Origin: a virus
Direction: 5' to 3' (one strand)
IMG/VR virus record: IMGVR_UViG_3300045911_000143
Location: 14,355 to 78,354 of that record
Length of the DNA: 64,000 bases
The stretch's first letter is position 1; every line of letters begins with the position of its first letter. The notes beneath the pieces are model-generated. The model made no database searches, was not told the origin of the DNA, and saw nothing but the letters and a program-made list of their open reading frames with translations. Both the position numbers and the translations under genes were made by a program. Positions 2,849 to 60,519 of the stretch are shown in pieces.

Positions 2849-3640
2849 TTATTGGAGTATTTGCATAGGGTGTTTTACTTGATATGTACCAATTAAATCA
2901 CCTATATCTCCCCAATAAACTCCACTGTTAAGATTAAGTATACCTACAATTTTAGTAGCCCCAGAAAATCCTATCTGTTTATCTATTCTAACAGACTTAG
3001 AAGGATTTTCACCATAATTTAAGGTTCTTAGTCGTCTTGTCAATTTATCTTGTTCTCGTTTTATATCTGCGGGCTGTTGTTCTATTGCGGAATCGACAAT
3101 AACAGTAATGTATTCTTTCAAATCTTTTTCAAGATATGGTTTTAACTTTTCATAATGTTTCTTATTACTTGATGTAACCATTTTCTCTTCGATTATTTTA
3201 AGACACATTTTTACTTGTTCTTTTACAAAATCATAGAAAACATCATCTGAAATTTCATAATCATGCTCATTTAATAATTTCTTCAAATTTACGTCAATGG
3301 TATGGTGAATACTTGCTGAAACATAATCTTCATCTATGATTGTCTCTCTTTCTTGAGCCTTAATCACAACTATTATTTCAGGACTTTTGGTTTTAAAACT
3401 AATTTCTTTGGCCGCCGTGATTGCAGCTTGTTTGTCTTTAGACATATAAACGCCATAAAGTGGAGTTTGTGGTATGTGAAAATAAGCTTCTATTTCATCA
3501 CTTCCGTAGCCATCTTCACTTTTATTTGGAATAAGGCCATGTTTTAGTATAGAACGGAGATATGCTCCTCCTGTTCCATGATAAAAATATTTCTTTTCCT
3601 TAGAAAATTTTGCTTCTTTTAAAATATCAAAAATAAACAT
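2849..3640 (-). CDS. ADP-ribosyltransferase / Tpt1-like fold protein
   Basis: YHGT...SILKHGL.P...GVYMS...A..AA pattern of H-type ART folds; late-promoter-like AATAAATA upstream. Confidence 0.55.
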   Translation of the reverse strand: MFIFDILKEAKFSKEKKYFYHGTGGAYLRSILKHGLIPNKSEDGYGSDEIEAYFHIPQTPLYGVYMSKDKQAAITAAKEISFKTKSPEIIVVIKAQERETIIDEDYVSASIHHTIDVNLKKLLNEHDYEISDDVFYDFVKEQVKMCLKIIEEKMVTSSNKKHYEKLKPYLEKDLKEYITVIVDSAIEQQPADIKREQDKLTRRLRTLNYGENPSKSVRIDKQIGFSGATKIVGILNLNSGVYWGDIGDLIGTYQVKHPMQILQ

Positions 3641-3693
3641 TTCTCAATCAACTGTTTTTAGTATTTATTAAATAGTAATGGGAGATATAAAAT

Positions 3694-10287: not shown

Positions 10288-10782
10288 ATGTTTAAGTATA
10301 TATTAGGTCTAATCATGATCTTAGTTGCTGGAAGTGTAAATGCTGGTCTACCGGTGTGTACGTCTGGTGCTTTTTTTGAACCTGAAAGAGCAGGTGAAGG
10401 AGTTTTATTGACTGTTTCTAATGAACTCATCACTGGAGGTCTTTTTACATATGACTACGTAAATGGATTTGTTACAAACACAGTACCAGTAAAAACTTGG
10501 TATAGTTTGGGTCCAGTGGTCAATGATGGTACCGTAAATACAGTGGTTTTACCAGTTTATGAAACCAAAGCTTTAGGACCAGCAAGCGGACCATTAGTTG
10601 TAGAGACTCGTGAAGTTGGTTTTGCTGAATTTACTTTTGTTGATACACAAACATTAAGATTTAGCTATAATATTGGTCAATTCTTATATCCAACTTGTGA
10701 TTTCGGTCCACTGCCATTCTGGTGCCAGAGACGAGATGTTATTCTTAAGAGAGCTTCTGCAGTTCTTCCACAGTGCTTGTGA
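10288..10782 (+). CDS. exported protein with signal peptide
   Basis: Hydrophobic N-terminus ending VNA; TATAAATA and AAGGAG upstream. Confidence 0.7.
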   Translation: MFKYILGLIMILVAGSVNAGLPVCTSGAFFEPERAGEGVLLTVSNELITGGLFTYDYVNGFVTNTVPVKTWYSLGPVVNDGTVNTVVLPVYETKALGPASGPLVVETREVGFAEFTFVDTQTLRFSYNIGQFLYPTCDFGPLPFWCQRRDVILKRASAVLPQCL

Positions 10783-36741: not shown

Positions 36742-37737
36742 TTATCCATTCAATGCAGCATCCTGAACCGCTTTGATGAAGTATGCACGGGCTTTGGTGG
36801 AAACGTAACTATTAACCTGCTTCCATTCATAACCATTGGCTGCAATCTCTTCCGTACATTCTTTCAAAATGTCCTTATGAATCCATTTAATATACTCACC
36901 AGTGAATTTGGAATTCACTTCCATCCCATTTTCCTTCAGGTAAGAGATGCCCTGCTCCAGCCTCCATTCAGGCAAGATGTTATCAACCAGATTATTGATA
37001 CCCTCAACAATGGTTGGGTCAACGGTAATTTTCTTACCTTCCTTATTCGGTTTCTTATGCTTCAGCCCCTTTGTCTTGAACCAAAGTGAGGTATCTTGGG
37101 CCAGTGTATTGATGACTGGCATCCAGACAATTCCCTCACCAGTGCCAACCACACCATGCAACTTACCCCAAGGACATTCCGTTTCGACCATATTGGTCAG
37201 TTTTTCAATGTCATTGAGAACATCGGTGTTGTCAGCATTTTCCGAAAAATCAAGCGTAATACCAAAAATTGGAGCCTCCGCCACCCAACGGAACGGCGAA
37301 TTATCATACGCTCCCGGAAAGAAAAACTTTCCGTCAAAATGAATCATAAAACAAACGAAATGCTTTTCCAATTCAGAAACAGCAACTCCCTTCTGGATTC
37401 CCTTACCAATCCATTCACCATAGAATCGCACGACACCGTTGTTAAAATACTTCTTAGCAAATTCAAGAATGGCCTGACTATTGGCAGCAACCCAAAAGGC
37501 AAACCCGTAATTATCAGATTCGACGGTAAGCGGACGCTCACGAGAGAACGCTTCAACTTCACCCGTTTCAGTATTCACGGCAATAGAGCCGTTGGTACCA
37601 TGCAACTTGACCGAGCCAATATAATCTACAGTCCTGATAAACTTCTCAGGCTGATTGTTACCAAGGCACCAGTTATTGTGCTTGTGAACATGCTTGAAAA
37701 CGTGATGAATAGAATCAATCGAAGGGAACTTCAACAT
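36742..37737 (-). CDS. RNA ligase 2 family protein
   Basis: KLHGTN, YGEW.G.GIQ, GEG.V, KTK. Confidence 0.8.
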   Translation of the reverse strand: MLKFPSIDSIHHVFKHVHKHNNWCLGNNQPEKFIRTVDYIGSVKLHGTNGSIAVNTETGEVEAFSRERPLTVESDNYGFAFWVAANSQAILEFAKKYFNNGVVRFYGEWIGKGIQKGVAVSELEKHFVCFMIHFDGKFFFPGAYDNSPFRWVAEAPIFGITLDFSENADNTDVLNDIEKLTNMVETECPWGKLHGVVGTGEGIVWMPVINTLAQDTSLWFKTKGLKHKKPNKEGKKITVDPTIVEGINNLVDNILPEWRLEQGISYLKENGMEVNSKFTGEYIKWIHKDILKECTEEIAANGYEWKQVNSYVSTKARAYFIKAVQDAALNG

Positions 37738-38477
37738 GTTAATTCTCCAACGCGAGAGGAAGAATTATACAGCAATGGTTATTGGACTGTCAACTCGTTT
37801 GAGGACAATTCCAGTGTGTGGGCTTCCATTCTTCTTGACCCAGATGTTTCTGTCTATCTTCCAGACACCCCATTTGCTATGAATCATAGCATAATAAATT
37901 CCTTGACCACCGTAATCAGCAAATTCAATGCTACCCGAGTACCAATAATCTCCGAATTGGTCTTTGAAAATTGTACCACTCTTTGGATACGTAACCTTCG
38001 TTAGAAAACGTCTAATCAAAGTTTCCATTAAAATCTTGAACTTTCTGCATTGCAATGAAGTTATCATACTTGCTAATCTTTTCCATTTCAATATCGACTA
38101 GCTTGCTAATATGATTAGCAGCTTCTGTTAGCCCACGTTCCTCAAACTCAAAGGCTTTGTTCATCAGACTGTTTACTTTCCGAAACTTCCGAGAGGAAAG
38201 GCAGTGTAGCGTTTCCAGCATGTTGATAACATTGCTCATTTGATTCAGCCCTCGAAAATGGTTTAAAATCAACAACTTGAATATCTTCTGCGTATGGTTT
38301 AAAGACCAATTTGTTGTTTTTTTGCAACAAAGTGCCTATGTCACCATCTTTCCAGAATTTTAAAACTGATTCATCAGCTTTTGCTATAGTACCATCTTCA
38401 AGATAGATGTAGGTATACTTTCTGTGAAGGGGTGTAAATCGTAACGCAGCCTTCATGGAAGGTAATTAACTTCCGTA

Positions 38478-46138: not shown

Positions 46139-46543
46139 TCAATAGACCTTAAATTTGTTATGTTTCCAATATTTTATATTACCTTCTGTTATAGGATTTG
46201 AAAGGTGCATCTGTAAATTCAGGCGAAGTGCATTTTCGACACACTTCTTATTTAAGCCTTTGTTTCTAAAGGATTTTTGAGTGTATGAATGGATGTATCT
46301 ATCTTTACCCATTTGCATGTCACCATCACCGTTGAAGAAATAACGGCTAAAGATGATAGTCCATGAACGAGCAACACCATCAATTTCAGCAATAGAAAGA
46401 ATTAATTTAGACTCTGGATTGTTCTTATAATCCCTGAAACAGGGCCACATCATACCATCTCTAAAATGAATCTTTTGTAATTGGGAGATGACACGCGGGG
46501 GGATGAACTGGCCGGGACGATAAACAACAAATTTGGTGTTCAT
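46139..46543 (-). CDS. GNAT-like acetyltransferase
   Basis: YT...FRNKGL acetyl-CoA-binding-like motif. Confidence 0.4.
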   Translation of the reverse strand: MNTKFVVYRPGQFIPPRVISQLQKIHFRDGMMWPCFRDYKNNPESKLILSIAEIDGVARSWTIIFSRYFFNGDGDMQMGKDRYIHSYTQKSFRNKGLNKKCVENALRLNLQMHLSNPITEGNIKYWKHNKFKVY

Positions 46544-46571: not shown

Positions 46572-47428
46572 TGTAAGCCTGAGATTAAGACTTAACGCAG
46601 CAACCTTTCCGGTCATTATCCCACACTTGCAGGTGTAGGTTCTACCGTTATCCACGCACTCGTGTGCGTATTTGCCATACCTGCTCATTTATTTAAAGCG
46701 CGCGAGCTTATTGCGCTTGTCACCAATGACACTACTCATGGTTCTGTCTACCGCTTGCCTTGCGGGCAATAAGAGGACGCTAATCCCCTACGTGCGACTT
46801 TCCCACAACAATCTATCACCTTGCGAGTTCTAGACTGGCTTGATTCAGTTGCCTGTCAAGCATTAAGGTACTTTTCATCATTGGCCGGTGACAACTTTGC
46901 TATGTACTTATATACCATTCAAAGTTTTAATACCGCCTGAACTTGCGTGCCACCGTTGCTTCATAACCTTTTGGGCTACAAAATACAACACAAGTTCGTA
47001 TCCGTTCATTGGCATTACTAGGATTGTCATTTTCGATCAAGCTGTTAACTTGACCTATTGACTGGATTACGCACTTGCCTGCCAAGACTCGCACTAAAAT
47101 CCTACACCTTAGATAGTAAACTATGAAAGTTGCATCTACTAGAGGTTTGCTGCCTCAACAATTTCAGTTTTACCCTCAATTGCTTTCGTAGCATTCAGTC
47201 GTTTACCCCCTCACCCAACTCGGTAAGTGGATACCCCCTCTTTTGGAGAGGAATACATCCGGTGCTTTCTTGAATAGACCATATTGCTATGGCGAACGGG
47301 TTGGCGACCCATCCTTTATGCATATCACTATGCACTATCCTTGCACTTAAAGAGTTGCCCCTTTAAGTGTGTCAAGCCAGACCTTTCGGTTTCGTTCCTT
47401 TATGGTGGAACTCATCAGTGGCTACCGT
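46572..47428 (-). ncRNA. large ornate RNA, GOLLD-like
   Basis: About 850 nt without credible ORF, dense hairpins, own TTGACA/TAAGAT promoter (47435-47462), next to tRNA cluster; motifs GAAAAGT..TAATG, CTCGCAAG, GAAAGT, TGAGTAG, GTGGATA, TAATCTCAG recalled from GOLLD. Confidence 0.65.
47375..47423 (-). ncRNA. type I hammerhead ribozyme
   Basis: AGCCA-CTGATGA-GTTCC(ACCATAAA)GGAAC-GAA-ACC(GAAA)GGT-C-TGGCT; all core nucleotides present. Confidence 0.85.
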
Positions 47429-47740
47429 TTAAACATCTTAACACAAATTTATCGCTTGTCAACACTTATTAAAAAGAATTGGGATGGGCTACATCGTGAT
47501 TATCAGCTTCATGGTTCGATGTTAGTTTCGCATTGTACCCCCATCCAGTACAAGCATAGCACATTCTCACTAGTGGACTACAGACAGGAACGTGCAACCA
47601 TCTGTATATTTTTGAAACATGTAAAATTAACCTACATTTGATTCTATTTATTCTAACATAAAGAGACAGTTTGTCAATTTTAATTAGAACAATTTTTCAT
47701 AGAAAACAAAAAGAGACAATTCTGTGTTTTAAACGTAAAT

Positions 47741-47814
47741 TGGAGCGTCCTGTCAGAATCGAACTGACACCTTAAGATTGGAAGTCTTTGATTCTACCAT
47801 TAAACTAAGGACGC
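47741..47814 (-). tRNA. tRNA-Gly(UCC)
   Basis: Cloverleaf, CTTCCAA loop, U73-CCA. Confidence 0.9.
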
Positions 47815-59880: not shown

Positions 59881-60519
59881 TCAATAGGCAAGTTTGTTTT
59901 TGACAATTGCAGAATGCATCCAATGTTCGGAAGTAGCAACATGGTTTGCTCTAACAAATTTAGCAACCGACTTACTAAAATCATTATAGTCGAACGCCCC
60001 CGCCAAACGTAGGACATACCCCTCATCCCTTTCAAGATTTAGATGATTTTTAATGATACGGTTCAATTCCATTTCATCATAAATCCCTTCATACAGGACC
60101 GGAACACTAGTTACACCAAGGTTTTCAAACTTGGCCAGAGTTTCTGACCAACTTAGACAAAGATCATCACGCCAGAACGAAAAGCCCAAAAAATAACTTG
60201 GCAAGTTTTCGTAAAGAATAGAGTGCTTAGCGAAGCAATTTTCGCCACAAATTCGTTCGTTTTCATTCAATCGACCTTTGATATAATTACCCCAAAACTG
60301 TTTCACCCAAGCCCTAGATGGATGATCCTTAGAATCAATCGACCTTGCATGGATATAGTTATTATACATGGTTGTATTCTCACCGTCCATCTTCACGGTG
60401 ACTACAATCTGTTTGTCCTTGAAATTTTCTTGAACCTGCTCCATAGTCATTATCTTGTCGTCAGACGTTACATGCTGACTCCAAGGCAGATGCGGAGTTC
60501 TAGGATATTTCTTGTACAT
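59881..60519 (-). CDS. RNA ligase family protein (KYPRTPH type)
   Basis: KYPRT.HLPWS, KMDGEN, GEN..AKHS, EG.V.R, K.VR..H. Confidence 0.85.
   Translation of the reverse strand: MYKKYPRTPHLPWSQHVTSDDKIMTMEQVQENFKDKQIVVTVKMDGENTTMYNNYIHARSIDSKDHPSRAWVKQFWGNYIKGRLNENERICGENCFAKHSILYENLPSYFLGFSFWRDDLCLSWSETLAKFENLGVTSVPVLYEGIYDEMELNRIIKNHLNLERDEGYVLRLAGAFDYNDFSKSVAKFVRANHVATSEHWMHSAIVKNKLAY

Follow-up and report, generated by a model that had tools for sequence, protein, structure and literature searches.

GOLLD RNAs are about 800 nt long, which places them among the largest noncoding RNAs of bacteria and phages, and their function and biogenesis are unknown. The family (Rfam RF02032; Weinberg et al. 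2009) is characterized by a conserved 3' domain, a more variable 5' domain and a phage setting beside tRNA genes, and cryo-EM of GOLLD has revealed RNA-only cages (bioRxiv 10.1101/2024.12.08.627333; review PMC12990946). Neither a ribozyme nor a defined maturation of the 5' end is mentioned in the latter two descriptions.

Hammerhead ribozymes cleave themselves to leave a 5'-OH and a 2',3'-cyclic phosphate. RiboJ, an engineered insulator of the hammerhead type, is placed after a promoter, where it strips the promoter-derived 5' sequence from the transcript and leaves a fixed 5'-OH. Natural type I hammerheads with a pseudoknot between stems I and II are common in prophages, the known phage examples flanking protein-coding genes, and such pseudoknots are an established activating feature that is present in about 40% of natural hammerheads (Perreault et al. 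2011, PMC3088659). In another pseudoknot-activated hammerhead (PMC11300833), the pseudoknot itself makes up helix II.

Here we describe a viral locus in which a GOLLD RNA is headed by a hammerhead. The stretch of DNA that was analysed (64,000 nt, hereafter the window) belongs to a viral contig of 78 kb in IMG/VR with a CheckV completeness of 21%, and probably comes from a jumbo phage; a search of sequence runs with the window DNA returned DNA metagenomes from hot springs and microbial mats, and no RNA run among the matches listed. The first-pass annotation of this DNA was not aware of any described fusion of GOLLD with a ribozyme, and a full-text literature search likewise found none, returning passing co-mentions of GOLLD and self-cleaving ribozymes only (the 2009 GOLLD paper lay outside its scope).

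The GOLLD RNA and its surroundings

All features of the window discussed below lie on the minus strand. The Rfam GOLLD model matches the window at 46576-46998 with 189.5 bits (cut-off 150, E = 8e-52), over its full length (model positions 1-416); the match terminates at its 3' side with ...UAAUCUCAGGCU, where 46576 marks the end of the model rather than a mapped 3' end of the RNA. RF02032 spans the 3' half of GOLLD only, and the 5' domain (46999-47379, 381 nt) was assigned by alignment with relatives. Its entire length shows homology to the corresponding domains in the Xanthomonas jumbo phage XacN1 (locus L001), the Stenotrophomonas jumbo phage RAS14 (L002) and two IMG/VR contigs (L039 and L055), the GOLLD matches of which score 198-227 bits; phage CM1 gave match statistics identical to those of RAS14. 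From the predicted ribozyme cut to the end of the model, the RNA of the window measures 804 nt (47379-46576), and in all nine loci that share the arrangement described below this distance is 793-869 nt, in agreement with the known size of GOLLD. With a 3' domain above the cut-off, a 5' domain of several hundred nt, a total length of the order of 700-850 nt and a viral setting near tRNAs, the RNA is, judged by its sequence, a true GOLLD and not merely GOLLD-like, as the annotation had more cautiously termed the RNA of about 800 nt that it placed at 46572-47462.

The setting is equally typical of the family. The nearest upstream tRNA is a tRNA-Gly (47741-47814) that belongs to a same-strand cluster, in which it is followed by 14 more tRNAs reaching 52390, so that the 15 same-strand tRNAs upstream of GOLLD bear out the tRNA cluster noticed earlier. 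Some relatives of the window also carry the tRNA-like insert in the linker that is a further point of likeness to RF02032: such elements were found within GOLLD at L055:3239-3304 (+), L025:348-414 (+) and L099:10957-11028 (-), and one is reportedly present in the GOLLD of Mycolicibacterium. The linker of the window GOLLD is short and lacks the insert.

Downstream, an ORF of 134 aa (46139-46543), for which no family match was obtained, starts 33 nt past the end of the GOLLD model. A terminator was looked for between 46576 and this ORF and none was found, so the ORF may be co-transcribed with GOLLD. In the relatives it is a tRNA that comes next, 74-135 nt downstream of GOLLD. On the upstream side, a separate small unit (47470-47677) is located between tRNA-Gly and the GOLLD promoter; it comprises a promoter of its own (TTGACA, 16 nt, TAGAAT with TG; 47677-47650) and a body of about 170 nt that ends in a GGAUGGG...CCCAUCC hairpin and a U-rich tail; its product may be a peptide of 16 aa or else a small RNA. 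The 180 nt upstream of GOLLD (47645-47466) are not unusually structured (z = 0.24). In XacN1, the GOLLD promoter is preceded, at a distance of about 500 nt, by a tmRNA gene of the beta/permuted type (L001:3861-4280, minus strand, 108-123 bits).

A pseudoknotted hammerhead ahead of GOLLD

Immediately 5' of the GOLLD sequence, and overlapping its first nucleotides, we find a complete type I hammerhead (47375-47427). It begins with a 5' tail, the pseudoknot strand (C)GGU (47427-47424), followed by the 5' strand of stem I (AGCCA, 47423-47419), the catalytic core CUGAUGA (47418-47412, corresponding to C3-U4-G5-A6-N7-G8-A9), the stem II hairpin (47411-47394, GUUCC/GGAAC with the loop ACCAUAAA), the core segment GAAA (47393-47390, of which GAA at 47393-47391 corresponds to G12-A13-A14) and the stem III hairpin (47390-47381, ACC/GGU with a GAAA loop). 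The 3' strand of stem I, UGGCU (47375-47379), would supply nucleotides 1-5 of GOLLD after cleavage. The three helices are closed by the G10.1-C11.1 and A15.1-U16.1 pairs; stem I is open while stems II and III are capped, and their lengths according to the descriptor match are 5, 5 and 3 bp, respectively. Nucleotide 17 is C (47380), and it is C or A, never G, in all relatives, which puts the predicted cut between C17 at 47380 and U47379, and the leader predicted to be released, from the pseudoknot strand through C17, at 47380-47427 (about 48-49 nt). The minimum-free-energy fold of 47431-47366 is precisely the hammerhead three-way junction. The annotation had read a complete type I hammerhead with a cut at 47380/47379 from the letters alone, and the sequence elements it called for are all present; its guess that the ACC of loop II might contact an upstream GGU corresponds to a stem I/II pseudoknot (GGU 47426-47424 with ACC 47406-47404).

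In its core, three-helix junction, open stem I, phage setting and pairing of loop II with the tail just outside stem I, the element resembles the type I hammerheads of prophages (PMC3088659). However, instead of flanking a protein-coding gene it is fused to the 5' end of a large structured noncoding RNA, it is located a few nucleotides from the predicted transcription start, and the 3' strand of its stem I is reused in a GOLLD helix. It shares pseudoknot activation with the hammerhead of PMC11300833, but helix II of the window element is an ordinary hairpin, of which only the loop takes part in the pseudoknot.

None of the Rfam hammerhead models reached its gathering cut-off. The best of them, HH9 (RF02275), scored 26.6 bits where 52 are required (E = 4.7e-4 for a search of 1.4 kb); the low score is explained mostly by the long stem I of the model, absent from the window element, which qualifies as a hammerhead by its defining core and helices. 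The hammerhead descriptor matches a single site in the window (128 kb, counting both strands), and composition-preserving block shuffles of the window yielded 0.25 loose matches per shuffle and 0.01 as good as the real site. The hammerhead did not arise as a chance match: nothing else in the window fits the descriptor, and the element occupies the same position in eight other GOLLD loci. No second ribozyme was detected in the contig by searches with our covariance model of this hammerhead (R1, on the whole contig) or with Rfam models and the descriptor of type I, II and III hammerheads (on the window).

The eight other loci with the same hammerhead directly 5' of GOLLD are those of XacN1 (predicted cut at L001:3270/3269), RAS14 (L002:3282/3281) and six metagenomic contigs (L039, L055, L116, L117, L125 and L141). 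Two of them, L116 and L117, were found via a pattern specific to the 3' domain of the clade and were not selected for the ribozyme; every locus retrieved by this pattern that has upstream sequence carries the hammerhead. Another two, L125 and L141, are the contigs behind the shortened loci L025 and L013, and their hammerheads were found with R1 on the whole contigs (L125:1501-1567, 41.9 bits, and L141:877-966, 25 bits), in both cases next to a distant GOLLD; that of L125 lies about 50 nt past an array of 12 tRNAs. In XacN1, the hammerhead-GOLLD unit occurs in two copies (record positions 38097-38199 and 356892-356994), which presumably sit in the long terminal repeats.

The catalytic core is kept in 9/9 loci, with variation at N7 only, while the helices around it change. 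In a structural alignment of seven sequences (A4), which was fitted to the model and to that extent favours the structure, 95% of cells are paired and 13 of 21 pairs, pseudoknot included, are changed on both sides, compared with 28-43% of cells paired in controls with the partners slid by 1-3 columns; the basis is 7-9 sequences, perhaps 4-5 independent lineages. For the stem pairs alone, 10 of 17 are changed on both sides, and stem I is 100% paired in the seven sequences, with a change from G:C to A:U. Compensation is plain even in the raw sequences of stem II, which reads GUUCC/GGAAC, GGCCC/GGGCC, GCCCA/UGGGC, GACCC/GGGUC, GUCUC/GAGAC or GAUC/GAUC. The pseudoknot is 96% paired and covaries in three of its four pairs, one position being occupied by UA, GC and CG; its variants are GGU:ACC in the window, CGGU:ACCG in XacN1 and L116, CGGC:GCCG in L117, CGGG:CCCG in L039 and L055, and AUCGG:CCGAU in RAS14. 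These sequence elements, their conservation and their covariation are direct observations.

In XacN1, RAS14 and L117, one or two additional U residues are inserted between A9 and G10.1, a change that could lower the activity of their ribozymes. Such insertions beside A9, together with the Rfam score below the cut-off, would fit a motif that does not cleave, whether as an inactive relic or as a structural element within the 5' domain of GOLLD. We regard this as extremely unlikely: across nine diverged loci the catalytic core is preserved at each position and the stem changes are compensatory, the core of L116, which is closely related to XacN1, is canonical throughout and free of the extra U, and the conserved C17 or A17 and the pseudoknot are hard to explain otherwise. 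To our knowledge, the only known role of a stem I/II pseudoknot is the activation of cleavage.

Occurrence among GOLLD loci

The first scan of IMG/VR with a GOLLD pattern, which was leaky, gave at least 105 loci, and an nhmmer profile built from Rfam-verified copies confirmed the GOLLD 3' domain in 59 of 105 among the matches listed. A 5' hammerhead is present in 4 of the 57 GOLLD loci with checkable upstream sequence, again among the matches listed (L039, L055, L025 and L013), so a hammerhead-led GOLLD is a recurrent minority feature. The remaining sampled loci (about 53 of the 57 among the matches listed) have no such ribozyme, which means that it is not needed for GOLLD function generally. 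On the other hand, a profile of the first 200 nt past the cut matches only GOLLD loci that bear a hammerhead, which ties the ribozyme to one subtype of the 5' domain.

In the other GOLLDs, no substitute for the hammerhead was detected: at the Rfam gathering threshold, no twister, pistol, hatchet, HDV-like or other hammerhead ribozyme was found in 37 pattern loci, including 16 true GOLLDs without the hammerhead, and with the descriptor of type I, II and III hammerheads the GOLLD loci yielded no further match on the strand of GOLLD and none at all on the other. The idea that hammerhead-less GOLLDs obtain their 5' ends by processing of an abutting upstream tRNA was also considered; a same-strand tRNA within 2.5 kb upstream is present in 11 of 76 pattern loci, about 40% of which are not GOLLD, and in none of them does it abut. 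Several candidates were rejected: L109-L115, L127-L137, L139 and L140 are chance pattern matches with neither a hammerhead fold nor a GOLLD, and the weak R1 matches in L099 (which overlaps the tRNA embedded in its GOLLD), L057 and L020 were dropped.

The scans also brought up other RNAs. L138 contains two canonical type I hammerheads (2491-2564 and 3568-3647, plus strand) about 1.08 kb apart, each just before the start of an ORF; these are ordinary hammerheads in the classic gene-flanking phage arrangement. In L125, a second candidate type I hammerhead (L125:2428-2489, plus strand, equivalent to L025:755-816; R1 24.8 bits), with a 5-bp pseudoknot AGCCC:GGGCU and a stem I that has 3 bp and a mismatch, begins 8 nt past the 3' end of GOLLD, so that this GOLLD would be bracketed by ribozymes; it is followed by a moderately structured RNA of 246 nt (z = -2.3) and then by tRNA-Gly. 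In L099, a 105-kb viral contig, a match of about 200 nt to archaeal RNase P RNA (10325-10525, minus strand; 46.8 bits, cut-off 84, E = 2e-10) lies between tRNAs and adjoins GOLLD, and could be a minimal RNase P-like RNA borne by the phage. L032 (7490-7760, plus strand) has a 5' region that resembles the 5' domain of the L141 GOLLD and shares its UGAGUGCCAAU start, and is preceded by a non-canonical hammerhead-like core (CUAGUAG ... CGAAAC) without a stem III hairpin; no GOLLD 3' domain was detected nearby, and the RNA may be a decayed or variant relative of GOLLD.

Promoter, helix P1 and a proposed maturation of the 5' end

The promoter proposed in the annotation (47435-47462) is indeed there and is of the sigma70 type: TTGACA, a 16-nt spacer and the TG-extended -10 element TAAGAT match the consensus at 10 of 12 positions. 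Judged by spacing, transcription would start at about 47429-47427, 1-3 nt upstream of the ribozyme. TTGACA is invariant in a five-way alignment of the window, XacN1, RAS14, L039 and L055, though its surroundings vary, and in the seven closest loci, including the window, the promoter is found at the same place without exception, its -10 element ending 7-16 nt before the pseudoknot strand.

A new point, for which comparative analysis of the sequences argues, is that the first nucleotides of the cleaved RNA would belong to a covarying long-range helix of the GOLLD 5' domain, P1, in which nt 3-8 after the cut pair with a stretch some 105-115 nt downstream. In the window, its 5' strand CUUGA (47372-47376, nt 4-8 of the cleaved RNA) overlaps the 3' strand of stem I at 47375-47376 and pairs with UCAAG (47269-47273). 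Across seven sequences, 95% of P1 cells are paired and three of six pairs are changed on both sides, compared with 21-50% of cells paired in slid controls. All nine loci have the partner at the homologous position, six of them with a perfect 6-bp match and the other three with five of six pairs; the variants are GUUUGA/UCAAAC in XacN1, RAS14 and L116, GUUUAG/CUAAAC in L039 and L055, GUAUAG/CUAUAC in L125 and CUUGA/UCAAG in the window (47376-47372 with 47273-47269). As P1 (nt 3-8) and stem I (nt 1-5) share a strand, the two helices are mutually exclusive. A likeness between the 5' end GGCUUGACA and a strand of an internal hairpin, UGCUUGACA, was rejected, as by eye it shows no covariation in L039 and L055.

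Taken together, the true GOLLD, the conserved and covarying hammerhead with its pseudoknot, and the invariant promoter just upstream make self-maturation of the 5' end, by which the triphosphate would be removed as well, the best-supported reading of the locus. Its benefit may lie in stability, in evasion of sensing or in ligation, the three options named in the annotation. We think it quite probable that the ribozyme acts as a device for 5'-end maturation and insulation that is coupled to the closure of P1. Promoter, hammerhead and GOLLD would form a single transcription unit, which the host RNA polymerase would transcribe from about 47428 onwards. Its initial ~49 nt would fold as a type I hammerhead, held in its active form by the pseudoknot between the ACC of loop II and the GGU of the 5' tail, and cut co-transcriptionally after C47380; the leader would leave with the 5'-triphosphate and a 2',3'-cyclic phosphate, and the product would be a GOLLD of about 804 nt beginning with 5'-OH-UGGCUUGA. 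Stem I has only 5 bp, which would allow the leader to be released and the freed nt 4-8 to re-pair with 47273-47269, closing P1. In this relay, the ribozyme would fold first and cut, the leader would go, and the new 5' end would close P1, which would also hinder re-ligation. Every molecule would have the identical, exact 5' nucleotide whatever the start of transcription, and a U would be allowed as the first nucleotide. Cleavage would also free the strand that P1 requires, the 5'-OH being a by-product. According to work with hammerheads in E. coli, a 5'-OH end is a poor entry for RppH and for 5'-end-dependent decay by RNase E, and the 5'-OH might thus benefit stability; this benefit, like the transcription start, the cleavage and the order of folding, is what we infer from the elements above. 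The 3-bp stem III of the window and the sub-threshold Rfam hammerhead score are points against this maturation.

The L125 locus bears on how the device should be understood. Its ribozyme lies downstream of a tRNA array, which implies that a position right at the transcription start is not universal and makes the conserved job look like definition of the 5' end rather than removal of the triphosphate. The same position, the second candidate hammerhead behind that GOLLD, the gene-flanking hammerheads that are known from phages (PMC3088659) and present in L138, and the location of the window GOLLD inside a same-strand tRNA cluster would all fit a role in punctuating long polycistronic transcripts of tRNAs and noncoding RNAs, where the hammerhead separates GOLLD from whatever lies upstream, in the manner proposed for those between prophage genes, and the promoter is secondary. 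We consider this rather unlikely, since the invariant TTGACA promoter 7-16 nt upstream in the seven closest loci implies that most transcripts start at the ribozyme; punctuation, however, overlaps with maturation by the ribozyme more than it opposes it, as the ribozyme fixes the 5' end in both.

The chemistry of the ends calls for one more comparison. The 5'-OH and 2',3'-cyclic phosphate that hammerheads leave are substrates of RtcB, the GOLLD of L125 lies between a 5' hammerhead and a candidate 3' hammerhead, and proteins of the RNA-ligase family PF09414 are encoded in all five hammerhead-GOLLD phage records examined, the contig of the window containing two matches (59953-60411, 100.8 bits, and 37339-37623, 41 bits, both on the minus strand). 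These features would fit a 5'-OH that is made for joining, through circularisation of GOLLD or its ligation to another RNA, by an RtcB-type enzyme or by a kinase plus a ligase. We nevertheless find this very improbable: the searches described above revealed no second ribozyme in the contig of the window, RtcB is found in none of the five phage records, and the presence of RNA ligases says little, since they are common in tRNA-rich jumbo phages, where they serve tRNA repair. Moreover, circular or spliced products of clustered phage hammerheads were sought and not found by Perreault et al. (PMC3088659). It is likewise improbable that the 5'-OH is a joining handle by which GOLLD becomes circular, as in loci like L125, or is ligated, for instance to a tRNA or other partner in the lineage of the window; if this were true, the working subunit of the cage would differ from the linear RNA studied so far.

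Returning to self-maturation, the window GOLLD would differ from those described to date in having its own promoter and a hammerhead leader, both tied to one subtype of the 5' domain. The closest functional parallel is RiboJ, in which a self-cleaving ribozyme also directly follows a promoter; however, RiboJ is synthetic and keeps a hairpin on the downstream RNA, whereas the device of the window is natural and its leader is predicted to be discarded. Provided that it cleaves as predicted, it would offer a clear example from nature of a promoter-proximal insulator that is a ribozyme and serves a noncoding RNA.

For one GOLLD subfamily, the conserved ribozyme at the front end indicates that the exact 5' nucleotide matters, and it predicts the chemistry of that end to be 5'-OH. 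The first nucleotides of GOLLD would be needed for P1, which could not form with the leader attached, and the ribozyme cut would provide natural construct boundaries for structural work. An uncleavable core mutant would be a simple genetic handle in the cultured phages XacN1, RAS14 and CM1, and could be used to probe how far the assembly of cages, the stability of the RNA or the fitness of the phage depends on maturation.
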